The notes: generated by a model from the sequence alone, not told the origin. Positions 4,690-41,543 are shown, counted from the stretch's first letter. The stretch is DNA of 41,543 nucleotides from a virus (IMGVR_UViG_3300042994_000012:1-41543), one strand, 5' to 3'. Translations and numbers: made by a program.

Positions 4690-4931
4690 GCCGCCGACAC
4701 GACGATGGAAAGCCTCACCTCTATCTGGTGCCACTTGACCCTGAACTCCAACGTCGCCAGTTAGAGTATGAAGCCGAAGTTCAGTTGGAGAGGGGTATCA
4801 TAGGCGCCACTGGTTGCGCGGAAAAAGCGGCAGAGGCAGCGCCTTACATTGGAAGAATTGATTTTCCTATTGCCTTCTGGTTGAAACGGCTCAAGAAGGC
4901 AATCAGAGCACTTGAAAAGGCTCTTAAATAA
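4686..4931 (+). CDS. Hypothetical phage protein
   Basis: ATGA translational coupling to the upstream gene. Confidence 0.55.
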   Translation: MSRRHDDGKPHLYLVPLDPELQRRQLEYEAEVQLERGIIGATGCAEKAAEAAPYIGRIDFPIAFWLKRLKKAIRALEKALK

Positions 4932-4991
4932 AGTACTTTGACCGGGCGCGGCGATAACTTCAAAGCGCCTGAAAGGAACAAACCCACCACT

Positions 4992-5651
4992 ATGAATCCT
5001 GCAAATAAATCGCGCATAAAAGAAAGGTTGACAGGCTCATGGCACCGTTGCTGTGTCTATGCAATCGCCAACAAGGAAAACGGAAAAGTTTATGTGGGAA
5101 GTACTGTAAACCTCGCAAAGCGATGGAGTGAGCATTGGAATGCACTGGAGCGTGGAAATCACCATTCAGTTCATCTGCAACGGGCATGGAACAAATCCGG
5201 TGCAGAGGCATTTGAACTGCGAGTTTTGGAAGATTGCGCTCCTGATACCGTGGTTGATAGAGAACAGTACTGGTGTGATTCGCTTCGTTCATGGGATCAT
5301 GCTTGTGGCTATAATATCCGCCTCCTCGCAGCCACAAGCAAGGGAATAAAGCTCAGTGCTGAAACACGTGCCAAAATGAGTGCCGCTCACAAAGGTCGCA
5401 AGCAAACGCCGGAACACGCAGCCCGTCAATGCGCCGCTCGCAGAGGTAAGAAACATGACTTGAGCAAGCGCATTGAGATGGGAGCAGTAAACAGACGAAT
5501 ATCGCCTGAAACCGCGAGAGAAGTAAAACGCCTGTTGCAACACGCAGACCTTACGCAAAGCCAGATCGCATCGCAATGTGGCGTGACAGACCGATTCGTC
5601 TCCAAAGTTAAATTTGGACAGATTCTTTGGGTTAAGCATCTCGACACCTAA
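4992..5651 (+). CDS. GIY-YIG homing endonuclease with NUMOD3 repeat and C-terminal HTH
   Basis: VYAI...KVYVGST..LAKRW.EH, REQYW, GYN; KLSAETRAKMSAAHKG; TQSQIASQCGVT. Confidence 0.88.
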   Translation: MNPANKSRIKERLTGSWHRCCVYAIANKENGKVYVGSTVNLAKRWSEHWNALERGNHHSVHLQRAWNKSGAEAFELRVLEDCAPDTVVDREQYWCDSLRSWDHACGYNIRLLAATSKGIKLSAETRAKMSAAHKGRKQTPEHAARQCAARRGKKHDLSKRIEMGAVNRRISPETAREVKRLLQHADLTQSQIASQCGVTDRFVSKVKFGQILWVKHLDT

Positions 5652-5670
5652 GTCGATCTTAATGCTGATA

Positions 5671-5710
5671 AAGCGGAAGTACTTTGGAAGTACTTCCGCT
5701 TCTTTCGTTT
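5671..5710 (+). terminator. Intrinsic terminator made of two AAGTACTT units
   Basis: 14-bp stem AAGCGGAAGTACTT/AAGTACTTCCGCTT, 3-nt loop, T-rich tail. Confidence 0.75.
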
Positions 5711-5714
5711 TATA

Positions 5715-5779
5715 ACTTTCCTATTTTAGTTCGTTTTCTCAACTACCAGGTACTCACACCGTAAACCCAGAGGGTGAGT
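5715..5779 (+). promoter_or_regulatory. Putative late promoter, copy 1 (terL)
   Basis: ACTTTCCTATTTTAGTTCG at 5715, TAAACC at 5762, GTG at 5774. Confidence 0.65.
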
Positions 5780-6976
5780 GAAATCCAATTAGTCCTACCC
5801 CGCCTTTATCCTGCACAACGGAAAGTCTTGAACGAAGCGCGTAGGTTCAATGTCGTCAACTGTGGGCGGCGATGGGGAAAGACAACTTTAGGCCACCACG
5901 TCTTGATTCCGCCAGCATTGAACGGATTTCCGGTGGCGTGGGCAAGTCCCACTTATCGCATGCTAAAAGAAGTGTGGCTGGAAACCAAACGCGTGCTGGC
6001 GCCTGTCACCGTCTCCAGCAATGCGTCCGATCATCGCATCGAGCTGTTGACCGGCGGCGTGCTTGAGATGTGGAGCCTGGAGAACTTCGATTCGATTCGA
6101 GGCCGCAAGTATAAGCGCTGGGTTATCGACGAAGCCGCCATGGTGGCCGATCTGGAAGAAGCCTGGCAGGCGGTTATCCGCCCGACGCTGACCGACTATA
6201 AAGGCGATGCGTTTGTGCTCTCGACACCCAAGGGCATGAACTTCTTTCACCAGGGCTTTCAGCGTGGCCTGGACCCGCTGCAGCCCGATTGGGCATCGTG
6301 GCAGATGCCCACGCTTTCCAATCCGTTTATTGATCCCGATGAAGTGGAGTCCGCGCGCCTGGAGCTGCCCGAGCGCGTGTTCCAGCAAGAATATCTGGCC
6401 GTCTTCCTGGAAGATGCGGGCGGCGTGTTTCGTCGGGTAAAAGATGCGGTGGATAATGGCCGCAGCGAAAACGAGGAGCCGGAACCCGAAACCAGTTATG
6501 TTTGCGGTGTCGACCTGGCGCGCACTCAGGACTTTACGGTGATCAATGTGGTGGATGCGTCAGGACGCCAGGTGTATCACGAGCGGTTTAACCAGATCTC
6601 GTGGCCCCGCCAGATTGCGGCTATCGAGAAGGTGGCCACCACTTACAACGCACCTGTCGTGGTGGACTCGACCGGCAAGGGTGAGCCGATTTATGAAGCG
6701 CTGTCAGCCACGGAACTGACAGTCATCCCGTTTGTGTTCTCCAACGCTACCAAGAACAAGGTGATCGATAACCTGGCGATGAAGATCGAACGCGGCGAAG
6801 CGCGCCTGATGGATATTGCCGTGCAGACCAATGAGCTGCTGGCCTATCAGTATGATGTCACGAAAAACGGCACGGTGCGCACTAATGCCCCGGCGGGGAT
6901 GCACGACGATTGCGTTATGGCGCTGTCGTTAGCTTTTCATGGCATTGCGAATCAGCGTATTTGGGAATGGGATTAG
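5774..6976 (+). CDS. terL: Terminase large subunit
   Basis: Walker A GRRWGKT, Walker B WVIDEAA, STPKG, RNase H-like GVDLAR..DFT and HDDCVMAL. Confidence 0.95.
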   Translation: MSEIQLVLPRLYPAQRKVLNEARRFNVVNCGRRWGKTTLGHHVLIPPALNGFPVAWASPTYRMLKEVWLETKRVLAPVTVSSNASDHRIELLTGGVLEMWSLENFDSIRGRKYKRWVIDEAAMVADLEEAWQAVIRPTLTDYKGDAFVLSTPKGMNFFHQGFQRGLDPLQPDWASWQMPTLSNPFIDPDEVESARLELPERVFQQEYLAVFLEDAGGVFRRVKDAVDNGRSENEEPEPETSYVCGVDLARTQDFTVINVVDASGRQVYHERFNQISWPRQIAAIEKVATTYNAPVVVDSTGKGEPIYEALSATELTVIPFVFSNATKNKVIDNLAMKIERGEARLMDIAVQTNELLAYQYDVTKNGTVRTNAPAGMHDDCVMALSLAFHGIANQRIWEWD

Positions 6977-7022
6977 AAAGCGAACGGCTTTATTTTGCAG
7001 GTCGTCTGTGAACCAATCGCCC

Positions 7023-7538
7023 TTATGAAATCGGCAATTGCAGGAAATCGCGCAGTATTCTGGCATATTGCGTAGCAAGGTCTCGGTTGCTTGTAGTGAT
7101 GTAAGTACCTTGCTCTTCTCCGTTATGCAACAGAAAGTCTACGTTGTAGTGTGGTCTTTTAACATTGCTATCGGGGTCGGATACACCTTCGACTCTCGTG
7201 ACAACAACACGAGAAATATCGCTCACGCGACCAATTCGCTTGTAGCCATTTGAGAACAAGTTTGTCCGCCTGTCAAGCAGATAAGGATTTCGGTAGCTGC
7301 GCAGATGGTGGAACAATCCATACAGACATATCCCAAAACATACCATTGCAACAGCGCACCAGAGATAGCTCCAGCCTCCCGATGATTCCGTATAAACCTT
7401 GCGTGCCCAGAGAATGCAGGTGAGCGAGAGAAAAGCAAAGATGAGCGCGCCCGGAATGAGTCCGGTAGCAGTCAAGCGATAACGCAGCGCGTGTGGCTCC
7501 TCAATAAACTCCCATGAACCAATGCGTGTGGTTTTCAT
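7023..7538 (-). CDS. Membrane protein with two TM helices (moron)
   Basis: Two hydrophobic segments; antisense insertion between terL and portal. Confidence 0.65.
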   Translation of the reverse strand: MKTTRIGSWEFIEEPHALRYRLTATGLIPGALIFAFLSLTCILWARKVYTESSGGWSYLWCAVAMVCFGICLYGLFHHLRSYRNPYLLDRRTNLFSNGYKRIGRVSDISRVVVTRVEGVSDPDSNVKRPHYNVDFLLHNGEEQGTYITTSNRDLATQYARILRDFLQLPIS

Positions 7539-7641
7539 TACAGAGGCCTCTACACTTTTACGGCGCCGCACAAAAGCTGCAAAGCTCAGCTCAAGGGTCT
7601 CTATAGTGAATTAAAAGACCCTGGTTTTGCTTTACATGGAA

Positions 7642-7854
7642 TCAACCCACCTTGCGGTAAGGATAAACGTCTTTGATGTGCTTATCGAAGTATCTTCCTA
7701 TGGATCTGGACGCCATCAGCGAGTGATAGGTCATCGTAGGCACATTCGAATATTGATAAGTGCCACCATTCTCGAATTTGACTTCAAGGTGGTGGTTTTG
7801 CATATCAAAGCCGACGCTGGCGATGTTGGATGGGCTAGCAGATGTTTGTTTCAC
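7642..7854 (-). CDS. KTSC domain protein
   Basis: SNIASVGFD...LEVKFENGGTYQYSNVP...LMASRSIGRYF pattern. Confidence 0.9.
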   Translation of the reverse strand: MKQTSASPSNIASVGFDMQNHHLEVKFENGGTYQYSNVPTMTYHSLMASRSIGRYFDKHIKDVYPYRKVG

Positions 7855-7867
7855 AATACCTCCACTT

Positions 7868-7930
7868 ACTTTCCTATTTTAGTTCGTTTTTCCAACTTAC
7901 GCGTACCCCTGCATTAAACCGCAGGGTATG
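7868..7930 (+). promoter_or_regulatory. Putative late promoter, copy 2 (portal)
   Basis: First 23 bp identical to copy 1; TAAACC at 7915, ATG at 7928. Confidence 0.65.
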
Positions 7931-9214
7931 AAATTCTTGCAGCAAATCGGGCGCTTGCTTAAACAGCCCGTCCATTCCGGCTTTGGTGGTCGCGGCGGCT
8001 GGGGCTGGCTGTCCGGTTTTCCCAGTGGTGGCGCCTTCGATTACAAACGCGAAGCCGGGCCGCTGTGGGAGTCCAGCATCCCGCTCATGTGCCTGAAGTG
8101 GGAGCAGCGCGCCACTGTCGAAGCCGAGCTTTGCATTCAGCGCCGCGACGAAAACAACAACTGGAAAGTCGAAACCGATCATCCGGTTCTCGACCTCATC
8201 AGCAATCCCAACGACTTCTTTGACATGCACCAGCTCCTGGACGCGGTGCGTTTTGATTATCACCTGTCAGGCAACGCTTACCTCTACAAAGCACGCTCCG
8301 GCTCGGGCAAAGTCGTGCAGCTCTGGTGGTTGCCCAGTTGGATGGTGGAGCCACGTTGGGAAGAAGATGGTACCTCTTTCATCGACTGCTACGAATACAT
8401 GGTGAATGGCGTCAATTACGCGATTCCCGTGGCGGACATCATCCACTTCAAAAACGGCATCGATCCGCGTTCGCATGGCCGCAAGGGGTTGAGCGACTTC
8501 GCTGCAACTCTGCGCGAAGTCTGCACCGATAACGAAGCCGCTATATTCACCGCGTCGTTGCTGAGAAACATGGGCATCCCGGGTGTCATCATCAGCCCCA
8601 AAGGCACCGCGTCCGAGGTCAAGCCGCTGCAGAAACACCAGCGCATGGAGATCAAGGAAATCTGGCAGCGCTTCACCGGCGAAGGACGCGGCGAGCCGTG
8701 GGTGCAAAGCATCCCGGTCGAAGTCAACATGCCGGGCTTCAGTCCCCAGCAGCTCCTGATCGACAAAGTGCGCCAGATTCCCGAACAGCGTTTGTGTGGC
8801 TCATTTGGCATTCCCGCGAGCGTCTTGCAGCTGGGCACCGGTCTGGAGAATTCCAACACACGCGCCGGCAAAGGCGATGACCGCGAACAGGCTTATGAAT
8901 CCTGTGTGATTCCGACATTGATGGTGTTGGCTCGCACCCTGACACGTGCATTGATGAGCGAGTTCGACAGCATCAAGGCCGTGCGCTTCTGGTTTGACCT
9001 TTCCAACATCAAGTGTTTGATGGAAGACACCAACGAGCTGCTCAAAACACTCGTGACGGCTTGCGGCGGACCATTTCTCACGCCTAACGAAGCACGCACC
9101 AAAGCCAACTACAAAGAGCTTCCCGGTGGCGATGAGCTGCGCACGGGTAAAACGGCGGACAATAACACCGACGAAAAACCCGACGACAAGACAGAAGAGA
9201 GAGAGGCCGCTTAA
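7928..9214 (+). CDS. Phage portal protein (HK97 family)
   Basis: HPVLDLISNPN, LSGNAY, DIIHFK, FLTPNEAR motifs; position after terL. Confidence 0.92.
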   Translation: MKFLQQIGRLLKQPVHSGFGGRGGWGWLSGFPSGGAFDYKREAGPLWESSIPLMCLKWEQRATVEAELCIQRRDENNNWKVETDHPVLDLISNPNDFFDMHQLLDAVRFDYHLSGNAYLYKARSGSGKVVQLWWLPSWMVEPRWEEDGTSFIDCYEYMVNGVNYAIPVADIIHFKNGIDPRSHGRKGLSDFAATLREVCTDNEAAIFTASLLRNMGIPGVIISPKGTASEVKPLQKHQRMEIKEIWQRFTGEGRGEPWVQSIPVEVNMPGFSPQQLLIDKVRQIPEQRLCGSFGIPASVLQLGTGLENSNTRAGKGDDREQAYESCVIPTLMVLARTLTRALMSEFDSIKAVRFWFDLSNIKCLMEDTNELLKTLVTACGGPFLTPNEARTKANYKELPGGDELRTGKTADNNTDEKPDDKTEEREAA

Positions 9215-9216
9215 CC

Positions 9217-10632
9217 ATGAACAACACACTCACCATGTTTGGCGGTGCCATCAAGACGTTGGGCATCGAAGAGATCAAAGGTCGCCGTGTTGGGCGTCTC
9301 GGCGGCACGCTTTGCCTGCATTCCACTGCCAACGATCCCGACGCCACCCGGGCGCGCGATTATTTCGATGCTTCGACAGATTTCAAAATGATCGACGGCA
9401 TGGAAGTGCCGGTTTATTTCCACCATGGTCTACACGAACGCATTGGCGTCAAACAGATCGGCACCGCTCGCATCTGGCGCGACGAACTGGGCGTGCAAAT
9501 TGAAGCAGAAATTTATCTCGATGATGCCGATGGTCTCAAGTCCTACAACGACGCCTGTGCGGGAAAGCTGGGCTGGTCATCGGGCACCGCTGCCCACCTG
9601 GTGCAGCGCACGCGCATCGAGACCAAATCAGGACGCGCGCACCACATTACCTATTGGCCGCTCGGTCTGGATGCCAGCCTGACGCCAACACCAGCCGAGC
9701 CTCGCAACGTGGCGACGGAAATCAAGTCACTGCTGGTTTCGCAGGAAACCGAAGAAAGTACTTTGGAATCGGCGCTGCTGGATAGTGTTGCGCTGCTCAA
9801 GATGGTCGATGAGACCGAATTCAGCATTGAGGATGGTATCAAGCGATTTGATCCCAACCAGGCGCGCGATAAAGATGGAAAGTGGTCAGGTGGCGGCACT
9901 CACAGCGGCTTGCTGCAGCACACGCATGAGCATGTGAAGCCTAAGGACTGGCACGAACGGACACAGGATGAAGCGGTCGCGATGTTTGAGCGCAGTTTCG
10001 CCGGTGCCACATTCGACATCTCCAAACGCCATCAGATCGACAACTCGCATGAGCATCGCGTCGCAATTCAGCATCCCAAACGCGATGCTCCCATTGTGGA
10101 ATCCGTGCGCGAGCCCGCTGGAGCCGATTACACGCCCGCACAGGTCCAGAAGATTGCGATCGCGCAGCTGGCCGCGAATAACCATCGCGCGTGGATTGAG
10201 AAGGCCATGGGCGAAGGTAAGCCAATTCCCGAACACATCGCCCGCTCTTATGGCCTGCATCCTGACCAGGGTGGTAATGCTTCAATCAAGCCGGATGAGC
10301 GAGCACCTTACCAGAAGTTACAAACCGAGTACGTCCTGGATAAGCAGCGCTCGCCGGTGGGACGTATCGACCAGGTGGTTTTGACGGAACAGACCACACA
10401 GAACGCTTATGAGCGTGAGCACCGCAAGCAAGTGGAAGCCGCCGTGGAACGTCAGGATTATGTGCCACGCCAGGTATTGGCGGATTACCCTGATTTAGCC
10501 GATAAGGTAGCCCGTCGCTACTCGGGCACCCGTCAGGAAATGAAGGCGCTGCAGATCAAGTACTTGCAGAGCCAACTCCTGACCGCTCAGGTGGATATGT
10601 TGCGCTCTGACTTGCAATTACAATCGCTGTAA
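9217..10632 (+). CDS. Prohead protease with a long C-terminal extension
   Basis: RDYFD...VYFHHG...IG...GWSSG...DASLTPTPAEPR protease pattern in the first ~170 aa; position after portal. Confidence 0.8.
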   Translation: MNNTLTMFGGAIKTLGIEEIKGRRVGRLGGTLCLHSTANDPDATRARDYFDASTDFKMIDGMEVPVYFHHGLHERIGVKQIGTARIWRDELGVQIEAEIYLDDADGLKSYNDACAGKLGWSSGTAAHLVQRTRIETKSGRAHHITYWPLGLDASLTPTPAEPRNVATEIKSLLVSQETEESTLESALLDSVALLKMVDETEFSIEDGIKRFDPNQARDKDGKWSGGGTHSGLLQHTHEHVKPKDWHERTQDEAVAMFERSFAGATFDISKRHQIDNSHEHRVAIQHPKRDAPIVESVREPAGADYTPAQVQKIAIAQLAANNHRAWIEKAMGEGKPIPEHIARSYGLHPDQGGNASIKPDERAPYQKLQTEYVLDKQRSPVGRIDQVVLTEQTTQNAYEREHRKQVEAAVERQDYVPRQVLADYPDLADKVARRYSGTRQEMKALQIKYLQSQLLTAQVDMLRSDLQLQSL

Positions 10633-10691
10633 CCGTGACTTAATTTAAACGTCGAATGACGTGTCACTAAAACAATTCGCCTAATTCAGCA

Positions 10692-10730
10692 ATAAAATCA
10701 CCGGGTAATTAGATTACCTGGTGATTTTAT
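10692..10730. terminator. Bidirectional terminator-like hairpin
   Basis: 18-bp arms ATAAAATCACCGGGTAAT/ATTACCTGGTGATTTTAT. Confidence 0.7.
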
Positions 10731-10923
10731 GTTTCGACTGCTGGAGTATGTTACGTGTTTAACATCTTCTTGTTTGTTCAATCAGTTACTGTACAGTGGG
10801 ATTAAGGACAGGCTGGACAAGAGAAGTTTGCGCATGCGACTCAGCTGTGTCACTATGCGACATTCCCGAGCCTCAAACCTTGAGACTTCAATACATTTGA
10901 TTTATGTTTAGAAAGAGGAATCT

Positions 10924-11514
10924 ATGGTATTACCGGTTGGAAGTATTATCGCTTACGCTGGCAATGTGGACGGGAACATTCGGAACGATCTACTCGCGCA
11001 AGGTTGGTTATTGTGCGATGGGTCCGCGATCAACAGAAACGAATACACACAATTGTTCGAAGCTCTGGAAAAGGGACGTATCTATGGACGTGGGGATGGG
11101 GCCAACACTTTCAACTTGCCCGACTTACGAGGCTACTTTATGCGCGGTGTCAATGACCCTGATATGGCTGGCGGCAGACCTGGCGGTAAAGACCCCGAAC
11201 AGGACAAACGACGCTATGTTGTAACCGGCGAGGCTTACGCAGGTGCTGGTTCTATTCAAGATCCTGGAACAGCACGGCCATCAAATGCCTTCAAATTAAC
11301 TCCACATGACGGCCATCGGCATGCATTGCCTGGTGGTGACATCACCGCTGACGGTCAGTGGAATTATGATGCAGTGCACGTAGGAATGAATCCACACATG
11401 GCCCAAAACACAGGGTTGGCAGGCGAGCACTCGCACGAAGTGAGTTCTAGCGGTGACAGAGAGACTCGTCCTATCAACATCGCAGTTAATTATCTCATTA
11501 GGGTCAAGCCGTAA
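10924..11514 (+). CDS. Phage tail collar domain protein
   Basis: LPVGSIIAYAG, GWLLCDGS, TFNLPDLRGYFMRG, ETRPINIAVNYLI. Confidence 0.9.
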   Translation: MVLPVGSIIAYAGNVDGNIRNDLLAQGWLLCDGSAINRNEYTQLFEALEKGRIYGRGDGANTFNLPDLRGYFMRGVNDPDMAGGRPGGKDPEQDKRRYVVTGEAYAGAGSIQDPGTARPSNAFKLTPHDGHRHALPGGDITADGQWNYDAVHVGMNPHMAQNTGLAGEHSHEVSSSGDRETRPINIAVNYLIRVKP

Positions 11515-11546
11515 CAAATTTTCGGATAAGCGATTTTCCTCTGATT

Positions 11547-11604
11547 GCTCGTCTTGTTTCAAGTCAACGCTTCCACGCGTGGATTAGACAAGACGGGCTT
11601 TTTT
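11547..11604 (+). terminator. Long stem-loop with U-tail (structure A)
   Basis: GCTCGTCTTGTTT...AGACAAGACGGGC followed by T6. Confidence 0.6.
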
Positions 11605-11652
11605 GTGTTTGCTCCATTATTCGTGCTATAATTGCGATGGTAGTTACAAGCT

Positions 11653-11802
11653 ATGCACGACCCTCTGCTCCTCGCCTTTATCCGTGTCATTTATTCCATC
11701 TTCTGTTTCGGAAAGCGCGAAATGGAAAAGGAATTAGGTTGCGTGAGTAAGAGCGAGCAAAAGCGGAATAGAAGCACAGAAACCGCACACACCGCCGGTT
11801 AA
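11653..11802 (+). CDS. Small 49-aa ORF with hydrophobic N-terminal helix (not in the ORF track)
   Basis: MHDPLLLAFIRVIYSIFCFGKREMEKELG...; extended -10 TGCTATAAT at 11624-11632. Confidence 0.45.
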   Translation: MHDPLLLAFIRVIYSIFCFGKREMEKELGCVSKSEQKRNRSTETAHTAG

Positions 11803-11846
11803 AATACCGGCATCAACAACTCGGCAGGGTGGCTCTTCATCGATTT

Positions 11847-11906
11847 GCCCGCACATTTGAGTCTTACGCGAAGCGACACGCGTGAGCCTGATGTGCGGGC
11901 TTTTTT
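11847..11906 (+). terminator. Long stem-loop with U-tail (structure B) upstream of the major capsid gene
   Basis: GCCCGCACAT...ATGTGCGGGC followed by T6. Confidence 0.55.
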
Positions 11907-11945
11907 GTTTTTGTATCCCAGGTATTTTGTCGCAGGAGAAAACAT

Positions 11946-13322: not shown

Positions 13323-13347
13323 GCCTGACTCGTGTTTTCTCCTAGCC

Positions 13348-13379
13348 GGAAGTACTTGGGAGCAATCCCAAGTACTTCC
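13348..13379 (+). other. 14-bp hairpin with GCAA tetraloop, made of two AAGTACTT units
   Basis: GGAAGTACTTGGGA-GCAA-TCCCAAGTACTTCC directly after the capsid gene; no U-tail. Confidence 0.7.
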
Positions 13380-15877: not shown

Positions 15878-15892
15878 GGACTCTGAAACATT

Positions 15893-33193: not shown

Positions 33194-33205
33194 AAGTGCT
33201 TTTTC

Positions 33206-33274
33206 TTTGCGGACATTGCGAAGTTAGAACTCCGTAAAGTCCGCAAACTCCGCAATGTCCGTAACTCCGCAAAA
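33206..33274. repeat. 9-bp iteron-like array (TCCGYAA-core units), five direct plus two inverted units
   Basis: TCCGTAAAG TCCGCAAAC TCCGCAATG TCCGTAAC TCCGCAAAA. Confidence 0.8.
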
Positions 33275-33279
33275 GCGTT

Positions 33280-34842
33280 TCACTCTTCACTTTCCGGTGC
33301 CGGTCGGTTAGGTAGATCCAGAAACCATCGCCCATTGTCGCCACGCTCTTTATAGCTGCGCAGCTTGAGCGAACTGATCGCATTTTCCAGCGTGCGACGA
33401 GAGCACAGCCCGGATTCTTCGGCTTCTTTGAACACTTCCTGCGATGGACGTGGGCCGCTCTTCAACTCTTCCAACAGAAAAGCTCGGGCGGCTTCAATCG
33501 CTTTTTGCGGTCGTGGTGCTTCCGGCGCCGCGCCCCAGGCCAGACCGTGATCGGTGATCTGGTAGCCGAGCGGCTCCGGTTTCTTGGCAAAGTTCGACTT
33601 GATGACGTCGATGCGCCGCAGTTCCGGTTGGGTTTTGTCGGGGATGCCCAGACCAATGATCGAACGGGAAAACTGCGTGATGGCCGAAGCACCGCGCACC
33701 TGGTCAATCGTAATCGGCCAATCGTTTTCGCCCGGGCCGGACTTGCGTAAGTGATGGATCGCCACGACAGCAATCTTGTGCGCCTGCGCCAGTTGCGAGA
33801 GCCGCTGCAGGATCACCTTCATCGAATCGTTGTCTTTTTCCTCGCCACGATGGCCACCCGACAAAGCATCGATGACAACCAGCGGCGGGCGAAACTTCGC
33901 GACCGAGCCTTCGATCCACGCCCAGTCCGTTGGATTATCGAACTGCAAGACATGCAATGGGTCACTGGGCAGAATGAAGCGGCCACGCGGCAGGCCCCAG
34001 TCGACGACACGATCACGAAACCCGGCCAGCGCCAGTTCGGTGTCGATCCACAGCAGGCGGGTTTCCCCGGGATCGACGCTGGTGGGTGTGCCGTCCGGCC
34101 AGGCGCCACAGGTGAGCAGGCGCCCACATAAATCGAGTGCGAAGTTGGACTTACCGGCTTCCTGACGCGCCACAATGGTGGTCACCATGCCACGCGGCAC
34201 CCAGCCCGGCCACAGCCATTCAATGCGGCCCAGAAGATCATCCAAATCTAAATCGGTGGAATAGCGCAGCGCCTGGGCGCGAGCGGCTTGCTCCTCGATG
34301 TGCTGCAGATTCTTCAGCACCTGTTTGGCGGCTTCTGCAGGGCCCACACAGTTGCGCGCCTGCTGAAGCCCGTTTTGCAGCGCAATCACACGCTGCCGGT
34401 CATAAGATTGCTTGCGCACCTCGGAAGCGTAAGTGGTGATGTTGGCAGCAGAGGGACACGCCTCAATCATGGCTGTGAGATAGGCCGCGCCACCAGACTC
34501 CTCGTAGTCGCCACGATTGCGCAACTCAGCACAGGTGGTGATGAGATCCACCGGCTGCTGGGCAAAATACAGCGCCAGAATCGCATCGAAGATTTTGCGA
34601 TGGCCGTCCCGGTAGAAGTCGTCACGCTCTAAGATTTCAGCCGCGCGCGTGATGGCATCGCGTTCCAACATCATCGCTGCCAGAGTACTCTGCTCAGATT
34701 CCAGTGACTGGGGCAGTCCCACCGCTGCAGGCGATGAGCGTCGCGCACTGTGAAAATGACTTGCGGAGTTTGCGGACTTTACGGAGTTTGCGGACTTTAC
34801 GGAGTTTGCGGACATTGCGGAGTTCCGAAGATCGTTGTTCAC
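33280..34842 (-). CDS. Replicative helicase: DnaB N-terminal domain fused to an AAA_25/RepA-like ATPase
   Basis: LPQSLESEQS...DDFY..GHRKIF...PVDLIT; IEWLWPGWVPRG..ARQEAGKS; LVVIDAL; IHHLRK; RGASA. Confidence 0.85.
   Translation of the reverse strand: MNNDLRNSAMSANSVKSANSVKSANSASHFHSARRSSPAAVGLPQSLESEQSTLAAMMLERDAITRAAEILERDDFYRDGHRKIFDAILALYFAQQPVDLITTCAELRNRGDYEESGGAAYLTAMIEACPSAANITTYASEVRKQSYDRQRVIALQNGLQQARNCVGPAEAAKQVLKNLQHIEEQAARAQALRYSTDLDLDDLLGRIEWLWPGWVPRGMVTTIVARQEAGKSNFALDLCGRLLTCGAWPDGTPTSVDPGETRLLWIDTELALAGFRDRVVDWGLPRGRFILPSDPLHVLQFDNPTDWAWIEGSVAKFRPPLVVIDALSGGHRGEEKDNDSMKVILQRLSQLAQAHKIAVVAIHHLRKSGPGENDWPITIDQVRGASAITQFSRSIIGLGIPDKTQPELRRIDVIKSNFAKKPEPLGYQITDHGLAWGAAPEAPRPQKAIEAARAFLLEELKSGPRPSQEVFKEAEESGLCSRRTLENAISSLKLRSYKERGDNGRWFLDLPNRPAPESEE
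34760..34825 (-). repeat. 9-bp iteron-like array, seven units, inside the 5' end of the helicase gene
   Basis: TCCGCAATG TCCGCAAAC TCCGTAAAG ... on the minus strand; encodes SAMSANSVKSANSVKSANSAS. Confidence 0.85.
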
Positions 34843-35450
34843 GCGGAACTCCCTTCACCAGAAGCGAATGCTTCTCCGGCAGCAATTAAAGTACTTTGAG
34901 CGGTGTCATCATTCTCAAATTCATCGTCGAACGCCTCGTCGTCGCCCGGAGCATAAGCGTCGGTTTGGGGCATCGGCACCGCCGCCAGGTGTTGTTCCAT
35001 GGTGAGCGCCATCTGACGCGCGTCCGGGCGCCACAGCCCATGCCGGTCGATCTCTTTTTGAAAGCCTTCGAAGTCGTGCCCGACAATAGAGAGCTTGGTA
35101 TTACCCTCTTCGTCTTCTTCGGCCCAACAGTGCATCAGTTCGTGATCGATCAGAGCTTCGCGCTGTTCAGGGTTGAGGCCATTCCAGATCGGGCTGGAAA
35201 TCACAATCACAAAGAACGGTTCGTTTTGTTCATCGATGTCATCGTGCTGGTCAACATTGGCTAAAAATGCGTTGAGGCTCGACACTTTGCGTGCCGTGCC
35301 CCAGACTTCGCGCCCGGCCTTGCTGGGCACATCATCGCGAAATATGAATTCGACGCGCACCGCATAGCGAAGTAGATGCTCGTGATGCTTGCGAATCAGC
35401 GGTTGCGCCAGGCGCCTGACTTCGGACGCAGAGGAATATTTAGCTGGCAT
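34839..35450 (-). CDS. Putative phage metallopeptidase
   Basis: FVIVIS..IW..L..EQREALIDHELMH...HDFEGF...RHG. Confidence 0.8.
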   Translation of the reverse strand: MPAKYSSASEVRRLAQPLIRKHHEHLLRYAVRVEFIFRDDVPSKAGREVWGTARKVSSLNAFLANVDQHDDIDEQNEPFFVIVISSPIWNGLNPEQREALIDHELMHCWAEEDEEGNTKLSIVGHDFEGFQKEIDRHGLWRPDARQMALTMEQHLAAVPMPQTDAYAPGDDEAFDDEFENDDTAQSTLIAAGEAFASGEGSSA

Positions 35451-35580
35451 TGTTCACCTCGCCTGGTGTGAAAGGTTGTGTATTCATAGTGCTATTTGAA
35501 ATGCAGGAAAAAGCGGAGACGCGCAACGAGGAAAGTGCTTCGATGGGGCTGTAACCTTGCGGCGAGCGCGTCCCCTCACA

Positions 35581-37083
35581 TTAAGCGGCCACCGGACGTC
35601 GAACGTCGGCCTGCACACGTAAATCCACCAGGCCCGCTTTCAAATCATCGACGAACTTATGCACCATTTCCGGCGTGGCATCCCCACGGCTTTTGATGGC
35701 CGGAAAGCGCGTGCCCTTGAAATGATGGTTGATGATGGCGCGCATGCGGGGACCATCTTCGGTGTCGATGCCATGTTCGGCACACACCGCGAACAGTTGA
35801 TTTAGGTGCTTGGCGCGTCCCGAGTTGCTGGCGGGCGCATTGTCGGCAGGAGTGTTAGACGCCGGTTTGTCGCGGCGGAACTGGCTGGCTTGGGTGCAGT
35901 TGCCCCAGTGAGCGGTGCCGTCGAGATTGACCGGCATGGAGCCACCAGCTTTGGTGCGCACGAAAGCGATCTTTTGCCCGCAGCCGCGACACTCCGAAGT
36001 GGGAGTGCCCGCCGGAATGGTGTAGATGATGGCGTCGGGTTTGACGGCATGCTTATCGAGTGCGCAAGGCTCCTCTTCAGGCACCAAAGTACTTTGTGGC
36101 TCGGGTGTTGTCCGGGGAACTGGTGGCACGGTCGGGGGAGCTGTAGTGGTTGTCCCGGCAGGTGGTGTTTCGAGATGCGGATTCTTACGACGCGCGATGG
36201 CGTCGGATAAGCTGCGAAAGTACTTTTCAACGGTTTCCAGGTCAGCATCTGGCGGCAATTCACGGCGCTTGATACCCAGTTTTACACCCTGCTCCAACAA
36301 ATCTTCATAGGCTGCGGTCGCCGCTTCCAGTTGGCTTTCTTCGGGGCTGGGCAGTGTGGGATCAATGGGTGGCGGCGTGGCCATATCGTCGTTGATCCAG
36401 TCCAGAAGTACTTTGGCGAGCTGGCGCCCGGGCTGGGGGATGATCTGGTCGGCAATCAGGCTGCAGCGCGACTTGGTGACAATCAGTTCGTGTTCCTGGG
36501 TGATGTCACCCACGATGTCGAATTCATACTCCATCTGATCGCGTTGCACCGGCGCCAGGCCGACTTTGCGCACCACGGTTTTGCCGGTGCGTTCATCCTT
36601 TTCCTGCACATGTTCGGTTTTGGCGCGCATCGTCGCGATAACGTGAATCTTAGCGCCTACAATGGCATCGATAAGCTGATTGTGAAGTGGTGTGACATTG
36701 CGCCAGGCGCCAAAGCTGTTGCCGCTCTGGGAGCGTTTACCAGCTTGATCGACCATTTCGAGTGCGCCACCCTTGCCGGTCCAGGCATGGGAAAGCGAAT
36801 CGAGAATGATGACATCGTAATTCTGTTCCTGCGCGATTTCGATGCAGCGAACGTAATGGAGAGGATTGAAGTTCTCCAGTTCGATAGTGTCGAAATTGAA
36901 CTCCGCATACTTGGAAGCGCTGCCGTGCTCGGTATCAATCACCAGCACATTGTCGCCCAAGCCTTTGGCGATGTTGAGCGCCGAATAGGTTTTGCCGCTG
37001 CCGGCAATACCGATCAGCGCCATTTTGAGTTTGGTGTTGCGGCGCGTGGCCCGTTTGATTTGAAAGTTCACTTGTGAGGTCAT
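35581..37083 (-). CDS. Sak4-like (AAA_24) recombination ATPase with C-terminal extension and Zn finger
   Basis: GIAGSGKT, VIDTEHGS, IILDSLSHAW, EYEFD; CRGC...H...C; GGAG RBS before ATG 37083. Confidence 0.82.
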   Translation of the reverse strand: MTSQVNFQIKRATRRNTKLKMALIGIAGSGKTYSALNIAKGLGDNVLVIDTEHGSASKYAEFNFDTIELENFNPLHYVRCIEIAQEQNYDVIILDSLSHAWTGKGGALEMVDQAGKRSQSGNSFGAWRNVTPLHNQLIDAIVGAKIHVIATMRAKTEHVQEKDERTGKTVVRKVGLAPVQRDQMEYEFDIVGDITQEHELIVTKSRCSLIADQIIPQPGRQLAKVLLDWINDDMATPPPIDPTLPSPEESQLEAATAAYEDLLEQGVKLGIKRRELPPDADLETVEKYFRSLSDAIARRKNPHLETPPAGTTTTAPPTVPPVPRTTPEPQSTLVPEEEPCALDKHAVKPDAIIYTIPAGTPTSECRGCGQKIAFVRTKAGGSMPVNLDGTAHWGNCTQASQFRRDKPASNTPADNAPASNSGRAKHLNQLFAVCAEHGIDTEDGPRMRAIINHHFKGTRFPAIKSRGDATPEMVHKFVDDLKAGLVDLRVQADVRRPVAA

Positions 37084-37105
37084 AGGAGTTCTCCGAATCA
37101 AAGGA

Positions 37106-37474
37106 TCAGCAGCGGCCACCAAAAACGCGCAGATGCATGGGAAAACTTTCGCCCAGGTGGATCGGCTCGGCGCTTGAAGCGTTCGCTTTCAAAGGCTGCG
37201 CTTCCACGGTGCGCGGTTCCAAATGCGCCTGGATCAGGAGCAATTCCTCGCGGCTCTGTTCCTCGGCCCGATTGGCCAGCAAGCGCATCAGCAACAAGCG
37301 ATCACAGCGATATTCGGTCAAGGTGATGTCCAGCTGGGATTCGACCTGCTGACGGCGCTGACGCTCATCCCGAGCGGCCTGGCGTGACAACCAAGCATCG
37401 AGAGCCAGAGCGAGAAAAAGAATGACGAGGAGCGTGCCCCACGTCCATAACTGCACACTAAGTTGAGTGTTCAT
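37106..37474 (-). CDS. Hypothetical protein with one TM helix and a coiled coil
   Basis: Hydrophobic N-terminus, GGAG RBS. Confidence 0.55.
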   Translation of the reverse strand: MNTQLSVQLWTWGTLLVILFLALALDAWLSRQAARDERQRRQQVESQLDITLTEYRCDRLLLMRLLANRAEEQSREELLLIQAHLEPRTVEAQPLKANASSAEPIHLGESFPMHLRVFGGRC

Positions 37475-37487
37475 ACGAGATCTCCAT

Positions 37488-37706
37488 TCAAGGTATTGGG
37501 TCAGAGGCCAAAGTACTTTCGGGCTGGGTTTCAATCTCCAGATGTGACAGCGCACGGCGCAGCTTGGTCAGTGCCCGCTTCTCGATTTGTTGAACGCGTT
37601 GCAGGCTGATACCCATCCGCTCCGCCACCTGCTTTTGTGTCATCGCAGGTGGCGGCAAGGAAGAATAATGGGGTGAGCGTGATGAAGATTGGGCTATACT
37701 TTTCAT
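37488..37706 (-). CDS. Stand-alone sigma70 region 4-like HTH protein
   Basis: MTQKQVAERMGISLQRVQQIEKRALTKLR. Confidence 0.8.
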   Translation of the reverse strand: MKSIAQSSSRSPHYSSLPPPAMTQKQVAERMGISLQRVQQIEKRALTKLRRALSHLEIETQPESTLASDPIP

Positions 37707-37768
37707 AATTCCTGCCTGGGAATTGTCGTTGGCGGCTCGCGTGTTGGCTCACGTGAGCCGTTTTGTTT

Positions 37769-38029
37769 TTAGTGCGTGGTCTTACGTAGTTCGTTCATCG
37801 CGAAGTGCTCCGCTTCCTCGCGCAACACCTCAGTCAAAATCTCGACGTGCTCGCGCACGATTTCATTAAGCGGCCTGTCGAGCGTGTTCCGGTATTCCTC
37901 GGCGGCGCTTTGCCCGATGGCTTTGGCGGCGTGGTGCAGGTGAATCGAGGTCGTTATGTCCGCGTCCGGCTGGCGATTCGGTTGGCTGGGCACTAACAGT
38001 GCTGACAGCAACTGGTTGGGAATCAACAT
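37769..38029 (-). CDS. Hypothetical phage protein
   Basis: AAGGA RBS before ATG 38029. Confidence 0.5.
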   Translation of the reverse strand: MLIPNQLLSALLVPSQPNRQPDADITTSIHLHHAAKAIGQSAAEEYRNTLDRPLNEIVREHVEILTEVLREEAEHFAMNELRKTTH

Positions 38030-38153
38030 GGTTTTGTTCCTTCTGGATACGCGCGTAAATCTCATAAGCGCGGCTGATCGTGTGCGCCATGCCTTCCAGA
38101 AGTACTTCGTCCTGGGCGGCATAGGCAACAGCAGTGGGATCAAGATCAAGCAT
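37866..38153 (-). CDS. Hypothetical phage protein (3' part overlaps the next ORF)
   Basis: GAGGA RBS before ATG 38153. Confidence 0.4.
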   Translation of the reverse strand: MLDLDPTAVAYAAQDEVLLEGMAHTISRAYEIYARIQKEQNHVDSQPVAVSTVSAQPTESPAGRGHNDLDSPAPRRQSHRAKRRRGIPEHARQAA

Positions 38154-38460
38154 GGTGGGTTCCTCGGGGCGAACCATCGGCACGGCGTGGCGAAACAACC
38201 ATCACCACGTTGTGCTTATCGATCAGAGTAGTCAGCCCCTGCAGTGCATGGCGGTTGCTGGGAAGAGCTGGCAATTGAATGCACTTGGCGCGCGGATGCT
38301 CGGTTAACCAGGCATCGAGTTCGCCCAGTGTTCTAGCTGTCCAGGGAAACCCTAATCGAACCTCGGTGCCGCACTCAGTCGGTGTAAGATTCTCACGGCG
38401 ACGGCGCATGTATCCGGTTTGAATCCGTAAACCCTGGCTGGTCAATTGAACAATATTCAT
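38146..38460 (-). CDS. Hypothetical phage protein
   Basis: GGAGGTG RBS. Confidence 0.6.
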   Translation of the reverse strand: MNIVQLTSQGLRIQTGYMRRRRENLTPTECGTEVRLGFPWTARTLGELDAWLTEHPRAKCIQLPALPSNRHALQGLTTLIDKHNVVMVVSPRRADGSPRGTHHA

Positions 38461-38488
38461 AGATCACCTCCATTAAGAAAAATGCAGA

Positions 38489-38920
38489 TCAGCGGCGCAC
38501 ACCGCGTCGCAAGTCGCAACGCCGGGCGCCGTGGCGCTTCAGGAAGCCCAGGCCATCACCTGTGGCCGCTTTGGGCGGTGTAGCCGAGAAAGTCACGGTA
38601 GCCGTGTCGGACGTGCTGGCTGGAGTTGTGTCATCAGCCACCGGCAACATGCCCAGCTCGGCTAATGCGGCAGAGATGTGATAGCAGTGATGTTCGGCGT
38701 TGGCGATCTGGGCACTGTGCCCGAAGTTCAAACTCTGGCTAATCGCCTTGAACGAAGGGCAGGTGCAGCGACAGGTGCCGTTCAGGACATGCACGCCGAT
38801 ACTGTGAAATTCAAGGGGCTGGTTGCCCCACTGCACGGCCCATTGAGAGGTGCCGTCGCCCATTACGCCGCTGTAGATCAAAGGAACGTCGATCTGCTCG
38901 TTTCCAAGTGCTCTCATCAT
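38489..38920 (-). CDS. SWIM zinc-finger protein
   Basis: CTCPSF...CYH; ATGA coupling to the upstream HTH gene. Confidence 0.65.
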   Translation of the reverse strand: MMRALGNEQIDVPLIYSGVMGDGTSQWAVQWGNQPLEFHSIGVHVLNGTCRCTCPSFKAISQSLNFGHSAQIANAEHHCYHISAALAELGMLPVADDTTPASTSDTATVTFSATPPKAATGDGLGFLKRHGARRCDLRRGVRR

Positions 38921-39117
38921 GAGGCTTGTACCTCCAGTTCTAATTCGCCCGCTGCGATGAGCTGGGCCTTGAAGTCCATTACCTCGGAGCGCACAAATTT
39001 CTTTTTGGAGCCAACTTGCTCCTGGCGCAGCAATCCTGCGTTTCGCCAGTTGTACACCGTCGAGACCGAACGCTTTAGTTCTACTGCCACCTCTTCTGCG
39101 CTCATGTGCGTCCGCAT
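38917..39117 (-). CDS. Excisionase/Cro-like HTH protein
   Basis: MSAEEVAVELKRSVSTVYNWRNAGLL; AAGGAGG RBS. Confidence 0.8.
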   Translation of the reverse strand: MRTHMSAEEVAVELKRSVSTVYNWRNAGLLRQEQVGSKKKFVRSEVMDFKAQLIAAGELELEVQAS

Positions 39118-39129
39118 AGCGCCTCCTTA

Positions 39130-39190
39130 ATACCATGTTATGTCATGACATAACTGAAGTACTGGGAATTATACCATGACATAATATGGT
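39130..39190. promoter_or_regulatory. Operator region of the divergent switch
   Basis: Perfect 18-bp palindrome GTTATGTCATGACATAAC (39137-39154); half-site CATGACATAA at 39175; ATACCATG at 39130 and 39171. Confidence 0.7.
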
Positions 39191-39297
39191 TGCAACAAAA
39201 AATTCCAAAAACATACAATTTTTTTGAACGGACAAAACCGGGTTGCGTACAAGATGGCACGATGATACTTACGCGACCCACTTATCGAGGGCCACAA

Positions 39298-39741
39298 ATG
39301 GGCAGGCCGCACAAATTTGGCGAGCCAACTGTAAAAAAAGAGGTGCGACTGCCGGAAAGCCTTAGTGGCAAGCTCACGGAGTCCGCTATTCAGCAGCGCA
39401 TGGACATGTCGGATGTGTTCCGTGAGGCATTGGAGTGCTACATTAACGGTGTCGCGTTCAAATTGCCAGCCGGTGAGGATGAGGATTTAGCCGAAATCGC
39501 TGAATCAATGGGCTTCGACGATACCAACGCTTTCGCGCGGTTGCTCATCCGACGTGCCCTGGATCGCAGTCCGAACGTGATCCGCGAATTTCTCTACGGT
39601 GACATCGACCGGGAAGTCGAAGCGGTCATCGAAGCCGAAAACAACGAACTGGCTAAGGAAGGTATTGCTGAATTTAAAAAGCAAAACACCGAAGCCGATA
39701 AAAAAAGAGCCACTCGTAAATCGAAGCGCGAAGCAGCCTAA
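39298..39741 (+). CDS. Ribbon-helix-helix regulator, likely the repressor (alternative start 39262)
   Basis: MGRP...KEVRLPESLSGKL...MSDVFREALECYI and a second RHH-like segment. Confidence 0.7.
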   Translation: MGRPHKFGEPTVKKEVRLPESLSGKLTESAIQQRMDMSDVFREALECYINGVAFKLPAGEDEDLAEIAESMGFDDTNAFARLLIRRALDRSPNVIREFLYGDIDREVEAVIEAENNELAKEGIAEFKKQNTEADKKRATRKSKREAA

Positions 39742-39771
39742 AGCACTTTCTCTTGCCGGGGAAAGGCCAAC

Positions 39772-40512
39772 ATGTTTCAAAGATTCATCATTCTCGCAGT
39801 GCTATTCAGTGCCGCCTTCCACACCACTGTTGTTCAAGCGGCTAAATGTTCCGGCGGCGCCTTTTGTAACGCCTGCACCAACTGCTCAAGCTGCGGCCAC
39901 TGTGGCAAAGGCGGCGGCACCTGCAGCGTGTGCCGCCCCGACTTGTATCGGCAAAGTAGTTACACGCCGCCGCGCACCTATACACCACCGCGTAGTTACA
40001 CACCACCACGCGTTTACACACCACCAACCTACTCGGCACCGTCCGTCAGCCGCGAACCTGCACAGCCTACTCGCCCACGTCGTGTTACCGTCACGGTGCC
40101 CGGTCAGTTCTCCGGCAAGGTTATCGGTGTAAGCGACGGCGACACGATCAAAGTACTTTATCAGGGGCGTTACCCGGTCACGATCCGGCTGTATGGCATC
40201 GACACACCCGAGTCGCGCCAGGCGTTTGGAACGCAGGCCAAACTCTTCACCTCGCAAAGTACTTTTGGCAAGACTGTCACGGTCTATAACAAAGGTGGTG
40301 ACCGCTACGGGCGCACCTTAGGCTGGGTATTTGTCGGCAAATCGTGCGTCAACACGGAACTGGTGCGCAATGGTCTGGCGTGGTGGTATCGCCAGTATTC
40401 GCCCAATGAAGCGAAGCTGCGCGATCTGGAAGTGCAGGCGCGGGCACGACGTGTGGGATTGTGGCGCGATACCAATCCGGTGGCACCGTGGCAGTGGAGA
40501 CGAAGCCGTTAG
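39772..40512 (+). CDS. Secreted thermonuclease (SNase family) with Cys-rich domain and Pro-rich repeats
   Basis: Signal peptide; VSDGDT, IRLYGIDTPE, DRYGRTL, VNTELVRNGLAW, GLW. Confidence 0.92.
   Translation: MFQRFIILAVLFSAAFHTTVVQAAKCSGGAFCNACTNCSSCGHCGKGGGTCSVCRPDLYRQSSYTPPRTYTPPRSYTPPRVYTPPTYSAPSVSREPAQPTRPRRVTVTVPGQFSGKVIGVSDGDTIKVLYQGRYPVTIRLYGIDTPESRQAFGTQAKLFTSQSTFGKTVTVYNKGGDRYGRTLGWVFVGKSCVNTELVRNGLAWWYRQYSPNEAKLRDLEVQARARRVGLWRDTNPVAPWQWRRSR
39958..40029 (+). repeat. 18-bp coding tandem repeat, four copies
   Basis: SYTPPR TYTPPR SYTPPR VYTPPT. Confidence 0.75.
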
Positions 40513-40544
40513 CCATCTGGCAGCATTGAGGGCCTGAGTCGTTT

Positions 40545-40940
40545 ATGCATATCTTGTTTTCCGATGACAATCTGGACACCCGCAGCTTTTACCAGATGGC
40601 CTTCGAAATCGCCGGGCATCAGATGGTGCTGGCTCACAATGGGCAGGAGGCGGTGAATCTCGCGGCAGTCGGGTCGTTTGATGCCATTGTGCTGGACATG
40701 GCAACTCCCGTCATGGATGGCGAGCAGGCGCTCCAGCAGATCCGGCAACTGCCAGGCTACGAGCGTGTCCCCATCGTCATCTTCACAGCCTTCCCTGTTC
40801 CGCATAGGAAAGAGGCTCTCACACATGCCGGTGCGGACATGGTATTGCATAAGCCAATGTTTCCCCACGAACTGTTAGGGCATTTAGATTATCTGGTAGC
40901 TCGCCGGGCCGCAGAAGCAGAGATCGAGGAAATCTCTTAA
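40545..40940 (+). CDS. Single-domain response regulator (CheY-like receiver)
   Basis: SDD, VLDMATPVMDG, FTA, HKP. Confidence 0.92.
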   Translation: MHILFSDDNLDTRSFYQMAFEIAGHQMVLAHNGQEAVNLAAVGSFDAIVLDMATPVMDGEQALQQIRQLPGYERVPIVIFTAFPVPHRKEALTHAGADMVLHKPMFPHELLGHLDYLVARRAAEAEIEEIS

Positions 40941-40988
40941 TGGCCCTTCAAACGAAGTCTCTTCATCGACTTTCAGAGAAAAATTGTT

Positions 40989-41543
40989 ATGCCTGTCGGA
41001 AGTTGTGCCCATCTCTATGAACCTGATCCACCGACCCAGCTTTATCTGGTGGATGACCAATATAACGCCGACTGGCATTCGCGCAGCCGGGAAGTCACTG
41101 TTTTTCGTGAAATCATATTAGACGAATTTGCAACACAAGCTGAATATATTTGTCAGTGTGAGCGCTGCAGGGAATTGCGAGAGGAACAAGGCACTGAGCC
41201 ACCTGCAGTTGATGTTGTGGAGCTGGCAATAGATGCCGAGCTTAAAGAGAAGCCATACATACGCGCGCTGGGGCCGATTGAAACCGGACTGCCATCGCCA
41301 GCTCAGGCTCCGGATGCTGTGCAGGAACGCCGCGAGCCTTTCAAATTTCTTTCGGGCGGCGAAACTTATAAAGAGGAACGGGCCAAGCAGCGCCGCCAGG
41401 CGGCGCAGTGGGAAGCGGCAGCGTGTTATGTAGAACGTGCCCGGCAAAGTACTTCAGATGTCGAACCTGACGAAGTGACACTGCATTGCGTAGACCGAAT
41501 ACTGCGGGCGGCTGGCTCGTTGCGCACGAAACCAAAATCATGA
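40989..41543 (+). CDS. Hypothetical protein
   Basis: 184-aa ORF ending at the window edge; CQCERC. Confidence 0.5.
   Translation: MPVGSCAHLYEPDPPTQLYLVDDQYNADWHSRSREVTVFREIILDEFATQAEYICQCERCRELREEQGTEPPAVDVVELAIDAELKEKPYIRALGPIETGLPSPAQAPDAVQERREPFKFLSGGETYKEERAKQRRQAAQWEAAACYVERARQSTSDVEPDEVTLHCVDRILRAAGSLRTKPKS

Follow-up and report, generated by a model that had tools for sequence, protein, structure and literature searches.

Two families of bacteria are documented to take up DNA in a sequence-specific manner (PMC3630211, PMC7811141), and after 30 years there is still argument over what HIP1 (GCGATCGC), the highly iterated palindrome of cyanobacteria, is for (PMC13756078). The current study concerns the palindrome AAAGTACTTT in a virus record of 41,543 nt (IMGVR_UViG_3300042994_000012:1-41543), the whole of which is referred to as the window, and concludes that this palindrome is one of several dialects in which a species-specific palindromic tag is spread across whole chromosomes of bacteria of the Abditibacteriaceae, a family name that rests on the source labels of the matched records. 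The tag would appear to work like the systems named above, although by its sequence it belongs to neither.

Like the DNA uptake sequences (DUS) of the Neisseriaceae and the uptake signal sequences (USS) of the Pasteurellaceae, the tag is present in thousands of copies at about one per kb, forms dialects round an invariant core, and occupies conserved, permissive protein sites as well as inverted pairs in terminator hairpins; overlapping dyads (as in Simonsiella and Kingella), prophages in the host dialect and stray foreign dialects in islands are further shared features (PMC3630211, PMC2397512, PMC6776037). The likeness lies in the working only, as sequence and phylum are unrelated, with an (A)GTAC(T) core here as opposed to GCCGTCTGAA/CTG or the USS core, and as the tag forms perfect palindromes in six of the seven tagged genomes, is patchily distributed in the family and has its core erased in sister genomes. 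The Neisseria receptor is ComP; no candidate receptor was found in these bacteria. HIP1 and the alternate palindromes of cyanobacteria are likewise genome-wide, lie within and between genes in all frames, are conserved and non-randomly spaced, and possess species-specific palindromic extensions and possibly an orphan methyltransferase as partner (PMC4390886, PMC5861425, PMC13756078). HIP1 differs in its GATC core (GTAC here) and its phylum, and no C5 methylase is shared among the tagged genomes studied here; unlike HIP1, the tag has nearly obligatory, mutually exclusive extensions, an asymmetric dialect and co-opted hairpins, and is regular at about 1 kb, HIP1 periods being 10-90 kb, a scale beyond the 20-kb samples used here. 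The main text of PMC4390886 contains no occurrence of 'gtac'. The SlmA site of Escherichia coli, GTGAGTACTCAC, is also a palindrome with an AGTACT core that lies mostly in coding DNA, but it numbers about 50 sites excluded from the terminus region (Ter), as opposed to thousands evenly spread here (PMC3116907), and the shared core may be coincidence. The tag fits neither macrodomain sites of the SlmA/MatP type (tens of sites, terminus-confined or terminus-excluded) nor strand-skewed asymmetric words such as Chi and the FtsK-orienting polar sequences (KOPS), since palindromes cannot skew and the one asymmetric unit has balanced strand counts (1,508 against 1,473). A literature search, with supplements outside its scope, retrieved no description of the motif in these bacteria; genome-wide word surveys may list it in supplements.

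The window was found to contain 17 exact copies of AAAGTACTTT, at precisely the positions listed in the original prediction and nowhere else, whereas 100 dinucleotide shuffles averaged 0.01 copies and never exceeded one. Allowing one mismatch, 27 matches were obtained where 0.86 are expected, and these include all five near copies previously reported (5676, 27597, 31199, 36405 and 41446). Copy number declines in steps from the middle of the palindrome to its edges, with 38 copies of AGTACT, 28 of AAGTACTT, 17 of AAAGTACTTT and five of CAAAGTACTTTG; the earlier statement that the word often extends to CAAAGTACTTTG is borne out on at least one side for 16 of the 17 copies, but on both sides for only five. 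Fourteen exact copies lie inside the 36 called genes and are read in all three frames in the manner proposed, as x-S-T-L/F (10), K-V-L (3) and K-Y-F (1), and of the other three, that at 4930 overlaps a stop codon and those at 18179 and 26680 are intergenic; gene calling near 37510 is not secure. The exact copies of AAAGTACTTT, listed without strand, are as follows (ORF, open reading frame).

4930..4939: overlaps the stop codon of an ORF ending at 4931
9755..9764: gene after portal, read as E-S-T-L
15432..15441: ORF 15341-15877, Q-S-T-L
17350..17359: ORF 17118-17990, E-S-T-L
18179..18188: intergenic, ahead of the tape measure gene
19059..19068: tape measure gene, Q-S-T-L
20880..20889: minus-strand ORF 20626-20976, K-V-L
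26680..26689: intergenic
30774..30783: ORF of 1047 amino acids, Q-S-T-L
31431..31440: tyrosine integrase gene, Q-S-T-L
31524..31533: tyrosine integrase gene, K-S-T-L
34888..34897: phage metallopeptidase-like gene, Q-S-T-L
36086..36095: AAA_24 gene, outside the Pfam domain, Q-S-T-L
36217..36226: AAA_24 gene, outside the Pfam domain, K-Y-F
37510..37519: 5' end of ORF 37106-37555, K-V-L; may precede the true start
40150..40159: SNase-family nuclease gene, K-V-L
40256..40265: SNase-family nuclease gene, Q-S-T-F

A codon-aware null had been named beforehand as the point at which the enrichment might vanish; it survives, as synonymous-codon shuffles yielded 0.18 genic copies of AAAGTACTTT (maximum 2 in 500) against the 14 observed. 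The encoded proteins permit AAAGTACTTT at 18 positions, 14 of which are occupied by the word, and within-gene codon shuffling reduced the number of codable positions to 1.9 (30 shuffles, maximum 5), which indicates that the DNA word has reshaped the proteins of the window. The reported lack of exact copies in the restriction-modification (RM) cassette holds true for its 4 kb, although this absence is not significant on its own (P = 0.16) and one AAGTACTT is present at 2847.

Concerning the host, a scan for pairs of close copies covered 10 of the 64 parts of the genome collection, tagged lineages elsewhere thus being possible, and among its 120 loci only two, both from genome G001, led to a tagged genome, G001 and G002 being the sole genomes checked in their entirety at that stage. 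G001, a member of the Abditibacteriaceae, carries 1,987 copies of AAAGTACTTT in 3.1 Mb, distributed over many contigs, and a single copy of the reversed word, a control that is devoid of the TA step, depletion being judged by Markov expectations instead. The motif therefore belongs to a host-type chromosome rather than being phage-specific, as the original prediction had required of a host signal. G001 is the sole AAAGTACTTT-rich genome among 251 sampled from the phylum (next highest, 46 copies) and among all 31 of its class. A match to AAAGTACTTT in a Capsulimonadaceae genome was dismissed as chance on account of its mere six copies; the same genome possesses a hairpin pair (L050:5001-5023) nearly like that in locus L107 of G001.

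The window's AAA_24 protein has counterparts of 57-66% identity in both family genomes examined and was not found in the three examined outside the family, while its DnaB N-domain exhibits 60-64% identity inside the family and 42-50% outside. The flanks of the window's 38 cores score +119 bits under the G001 matrix, as compared to -261 to -731 bits under the matrices of three other dialects. The density of AAAGTACTTT is 0.41 per kb in the window and 0.64 per kb in G001, the corresponding values for AAGTACTT being 0.67 and 0.88 per kb. These findings would suggest that the host of the window is a member of the Abditibacteriaceae close to G001, and it is very probable that the prophage bears AAAGTACTTT as a tag of its host, the host evidence being that of the relative G001.

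Seven of 27 family genomes are tagged, each lineage with its own dialect around (A)GTAC(T), namely AAAGTACTTT, GCAAGTACTTGC, TCGAGTACTCGA, GAGTACTC or the asymmetric TCGACCGTAC, and six of the seven employ strict palindromes. AGTACT is hyper-abundant in six of the 27, at 2,813-4,733 copies, whereas many of the other genomes hold few, with a minimum of one copy in 4.1 and in 6.0 Mb. Genome G118, from the genus of G001, contains 2,965 copies of AAGTACTT, 46 of AAAGTACTTT and 2,567 of GCAAGTACTTGC, the last of which is absent from G001. The word TCGAGTACTCGA is present 2,770, 2,510 and 2,261 times in G049, G163 and G254, respectively, and G127 uses GAGTACTC with looser flanks. The asymmetric unit of G022, TCGACCGTAC, has its two strands balanced within each region. 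Copies inside genes are single, and the tail-to-tail inverted pairs that it also forms lie mostly in intergenic DNA, an arrangement taken from a 66-row listing in which two overlapping regions cause some sites to be counted twice. In samples of each tagged genome the motif is the most over-represented word. Its core positions are nearly invariant among near-sites, and the two halves of the palindrome are each conserved independently.

Two side observations on dialects were made. The untagged genome G231 carries islands of two foreign dialects (L299:1-7600, designated C59; also C30 and C63), in one case with six copies of AAAGTACTTT in 7.6 kb, and these islands may represent transfer or bin contamination, the two being indistinguishable; repeats in G231 that were considered as a tag were dropped as a local repeat confined to one region and one orientation. 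A word without GTAC, CAGCCACG, is dispersed with lineage-specific flanks in G086, G136 and G145 (L216, L217, L230 and L302-L304), in G136 often as inverted pairs approximately 30 bp apart, and may be akin to repetitive extragenic palindromes or a second tag family.

The behaviour of sites in host chromosomes was assessed on regional samples (20-kb samples for G049), with gene calls in the relatives made by our own codon model rather than a standard caller. All 20 evenly placed 20-kb samples of the 3.83-Mb contig of G049 contain 11-28 copies of AGTACT, and a terminus gap is therefore absent. Short gaps between sites are avoided in G049, where 29 of 421 are below 300 bp; uniform placement would give 109, and a null that preserves the numbers of genic and intergenic sites 128. 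The gaps have a coefficient of variation of 0.71 (about 1.0 expected), and six control hexamers behaved randomly. The same tendency is seen, on fewer gaps, in G127, G001 and G118, and host sites are thus evenly spaced near 1 kb.

Positional conservation in orthologues, which the original prediction had suggested examining, was indeed observed: within a dialect, at a nucleotide identity of 75-77%, 14 of 19 and 12 of 16 aligned sites have the core in common where 5.4 and 4.4 are expected, and third-position identity inside sites reaches 0.86 and 0.93 as compared to 0.59-0.60 overall. Between dialects such conservation is mostly lacking: G001 and G118 share two of 17 sites (2.4 expected), and G127 and G049 seven of 28 (3.9 expected). 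Many host sites were seen by eye to adjoin alignment gaps. Sites are enriched between genes in every orientation class, and 18 of 49 intergenic sites in G118 are the centre of a stem of at least 10 bp; hairpins built from sites occur in the window, in L107 of G001, in L040 and in G118. Paired sites are rare (9 of 445 in G049, 1 of 69 in G001 and 1 of 82 in G127), and the flanks are mostly without the extra left-right matching expected from hairpin repair.

Mobile elements each carry a single dialect. A small plasmid-like contig of G118 holds, over a stretch of 15 kb, seven copies of the G118 dialect and none of the window's, and homologous capsid loci contain no GTAC in 3.2 kb (G247) and 4.3 kb (G145), both genomes being GTAC-poor, and ten in G207. 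The head module of an unrelated phage (L040:1-17351), with no tblastx match to the window and from a host lineage outside the genomes sampled, possesses 15 copies of AAAGTACTTT in 17.4 kb with an extra A/T flank, its dialect being (C)AAAAGTACTTTT(G). This phage was the one motif-rich locus among 45 viral loci retrieved by the pair pattern; three single-word scans of viral contigs yielded none among 86 loci. A shared dialect would permit phages, plasmids and islands to be assigned to a host lineage, the present prophage being a case in point.

The GTAC core itself is erased in much of the family. Observed/expected ratios, computed from samples of 20-66 kb, are 0.00-0.13 in nine untagged family genomes and 0.74-0.84 in three genomes outside the family. 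An orphan beta-class adenine methyltransferase, intact in 20 of the 27 family genomes, broken or partial in two and not found in five, is the candidate GTAC writer; it is present in all seven tagged genomes and also in 13 untagged ones, its orthologues are 56-75% identical in the family, and none above 36% was found in four genomes of the class outside it. Its nearest solved relatives are RsrI, MboIIA and CcrM, and annotated matches are at most 36% identical, for which reason its target word is unreadable from homology. Four of the five genomes lacking the enzyme form one clade with GTAC ratios of 0.86, 0.73, 0.60 and 0.30, and the fifth, G136, has a ratio of 0.03; G199 and G061 possess the methyltransferase yet have ratios of 0.53. 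A methylase promoter can contain sites for the enzyme itself, and in five tagged genomes the 200 bp upstream of the gene contain seven non-motif GTAC sites where 0.82 are expected, a post hoc count to which one genome contributes four of the seven. No conserved neighbour gene was found, and no C5 methylase was detected in five of the seven tagged genomes, which therefore share no C5 enzyme. As side observations, the methyltransferase of G154 (L597) is 75% identical to that of G118, those of the close relatives of G154 being 58-61% identical, which suggests a possible replacement by transfer, and CTAG is nearly lacking from most genomes of the family and likewise outside it, with partial restoration in G022, G118, G127, G172 and G207.

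The dialects round a fixed core, the conservation at permissive sites, the spacing near 1 kb, the hairpins, the asymmetric inverted pairs and the dialect-matched prophages together point to an uptake or recombination tag, and we tentatively favour, at a confidence a little short of even, a role in recognising self DNA when incoming DNA is taken up or recombined. Under such a mechanism, a sequence-specific and probably two-fold symmetric protein would be strict about the core and more lenient about the flanks; a fragment bearing one site would be favoured and a second site within a few hundred bases would add little, such that a benefit saturating at one site per fragment would even out the spacing. 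A shift in the flank preference of the reader would give rise to a new dialect and set its lineage apart, and a prophage would acquire the dialect of its host over long residence. ComEC is encoded in all 27 family genomes, a ComEA-type helix-hairpin-helix protein (HhH_3) in 25 of 27 and DprA in four of five genomes searched.

Several observations weigh against this interpretation. The competence proteins are general in the family, untagged genomes included, and their occurrence does not follow that of the tag; neither ComEA nor DprA was found in G001, a fragmented genome, and no protein reading the tag was found, receptor included. Strict palindromes in six of seven tagged genomes would be easier to reconcile with a dimer inside the cell than with a receptor of the pilin type, and the erased GTAC of sister genomes is unexplained by uptake alone. 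A quick RpoB tree of 30 genomes places the six AGTACT genomes in two neighbouring groups and requires three changes rather than one, with G231 and G061 untagged though within these groups. Sites in the window and in L040 are spaced at random, and the host evidence derives from G001, not from the chromosome of the window's own host. Neisserial islands are usually DUS-poor (PMC7371117, PMC2397512), whereas at least one mobile element here is denser than the host: L472:1-9618, a satellite-like metagenome contig encoding a primase, an excisionase and a small terminase, has 25 copies of AAGTACTT in 9.6 kb, approximately three times the G001 density, a value biased upward as the contig was chosen by motif search. 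The predicted host-wide HIP- or DUS-like signal acquired by a resident prophage thus stands on the codon-aware null and on the count in a relative of the host, while the choice among uptake, methylation-linked recombination and a nucleoid protein has been narrowed only.

Compatible with self-DNA recognition is a methylation tag in the style of HIP1, which we regard as possible if on the unlikely side, in which the orphan adenine methyltransferase would mark GTAC and methyl-reading repair, recombination or defence would render the sites useful or costly depending on the lineage. It would account for the erased core, as GTAC ratios are 0.00-0.13 in eight untagged genomes with the methyltransferase or a remnant thereof and 0.30-0.86 in four without it; the excess of GTAC upstream of the gene is as would be expected of a self-regulating methylase, and HIP1 has been found to raise transformation in a way that depends on methylation (10.1101/2024.09.10.611283). 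Nevertheless, the four genomes that regain GTAC are a single clade, G136, G199 and G061 break the pattern, the post hoc upstream count leans on one genome, the homologues of the enzyme do not disclose its target, no conserved neighbour gene was found, the tagged genomes share no C5 methylase, and a methylase site of 4-6 bp cannot itself explain lineage-specific flanks of 10-14 bp. The strict two-fold symmetry with independently conserved halves and the exclusion of close pairs would also befit an abundant dimeric chromosome-organising protein resembling SlmA or MatP, bound about once per kb and serving in chromosome compaction, looping or pairing, with a prophage gaining sites as part of that chromosome; the AGTACT core of the SlmA site (PMC3116907) and the structural role proposed for HIP1 (PMC5861425) are in keeping with this. 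We consider it decidedly unlikely given that G049 exhibits no terminus gap whereas SlmA has none of its roughly 50 sites in Ter, that sites are rapidly replaced between congeners (G001 and G118) and absent from most of the family, and that the asymmetric G022 unit occurs singly.

Two further explanations dispense with a host function. A neutral ratchet, as proposed for HIP1 (PMC4390886), in which biased repair turns near-sites into the palindrome in any resident DNA, agrees with prophages mirroring their hosts in both directions (no GTAC in G247 and G145, ten in G207) and with the random spacing in mobile DNA, but appears highly improbable because site-by-site conversion does not predict the four-fold deficit of short gaps, because proteins have changed to hold the word and because most flank positions are free of the left-right matching of hairpin repair. 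The palindrome might instead be specific to the phage, for instance an operator or packaging signal recognised by one of the window's own proteins; the window does encode a ribbon-helix-helix protein, and L040 and L472 are motif-rich, yet this explanation is extremely improbable in view of the many G001 contigs that carry it at a density equal to or above that of the window, the unrelatedness of L040 to the window and the 14 of 17 copies inside genes.

The remaining features of the window include two hairpins with a AAGTACTT in each arm, the first of which is terminator-like, together with further cores, near copies and the prophage modules; strand is given where assigned.

5671..5701, plus strand: 14-bp hairpin directly after the GIY-YIG gene; AAGTACTT in the arms at 5677 and 5688, T-rich run after it; z = -4.7
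13348..13379, plus strand: 14-bp hairpin directly after the major capsid gene; AAGTACTT in the arms at 13350 and 13370, no T run after it; z = -5.7
2847..2854: core AAGTACTT within the RM cassette
10558..10565: core AAGTACTT
38100..38107: core AAGTACTT
27597..27606: near copy GAAGTACTTT, E-V-L
31199..31208: near copy AAAGTACTTC, K-V-L
36405..36414: near copy GAAGTACTTT, K-V-L, minus strand
41446..41455: near copy AAAGTACTTC, Q-S-T-S
1..41543: temperate tailed prophage with terminase, portal, capsid, tape measure, tyrosine integrase, DnaB-N/AAA_25 and AAA_24
1-3653: type I-like RM cassette of low GC at the prophage edge, with HsdR_N and N6 methylase in one protein plus a Methylase_S subunit

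Two proteins of the window are recorded on a contig of 293,574 bp, which indicates that the window is a prophage. No tRNA was found in it, and no close relative of the phage was identified among viral contigs by its capsid protein, homologues of which occur in nine of 301 phylum genomes at 33-42% identity. The RM cassette was rejected as the reader of the motif since it is type I-like and type I restriction enzymes read bipartite sites. Runs of 9-bp repeats are present at 34761-34825, in the 5' end of the DnaB-N/AAA_25 gene (as S-A-N-S-V-K repeats), and, inverted, at 33206-33264 just beyond its 3' end; the two runs lie 1.5 kb apart with up to 28/28 matches, and are possibly iterons of a replication origin. 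Related intergenic stretches at 5715-5767 and 7868-7920, just upstream of the terminase and portal genes, are possibly a late promoter.

The Abditibacteriaceae may represent a third independent uptake-sequence system, next to those of the Neisseriaceae and Pasteurellaceae, in which a methylated GTAC core with species-specific flanks would act as a species password, lineages without a reader would purge GTAC, and phages and satellites would copy, and sometimes overshoot, the password in order to ride on or hide from self-DNA recognition; we regard this extended interpretation as doubtful but, if true, it would unite the DUS and HIP1 phenomena in one mechanism. The family constitutes a natural experiment in which tagged, untagged and core-erased genomes occur together, with five dialects and with a DUS-like asymmetric form beside HIP1-like palindromes. 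Comparing gene content across tagged and untagged genomes should bring the reader to light, and one member of the family is in culture.

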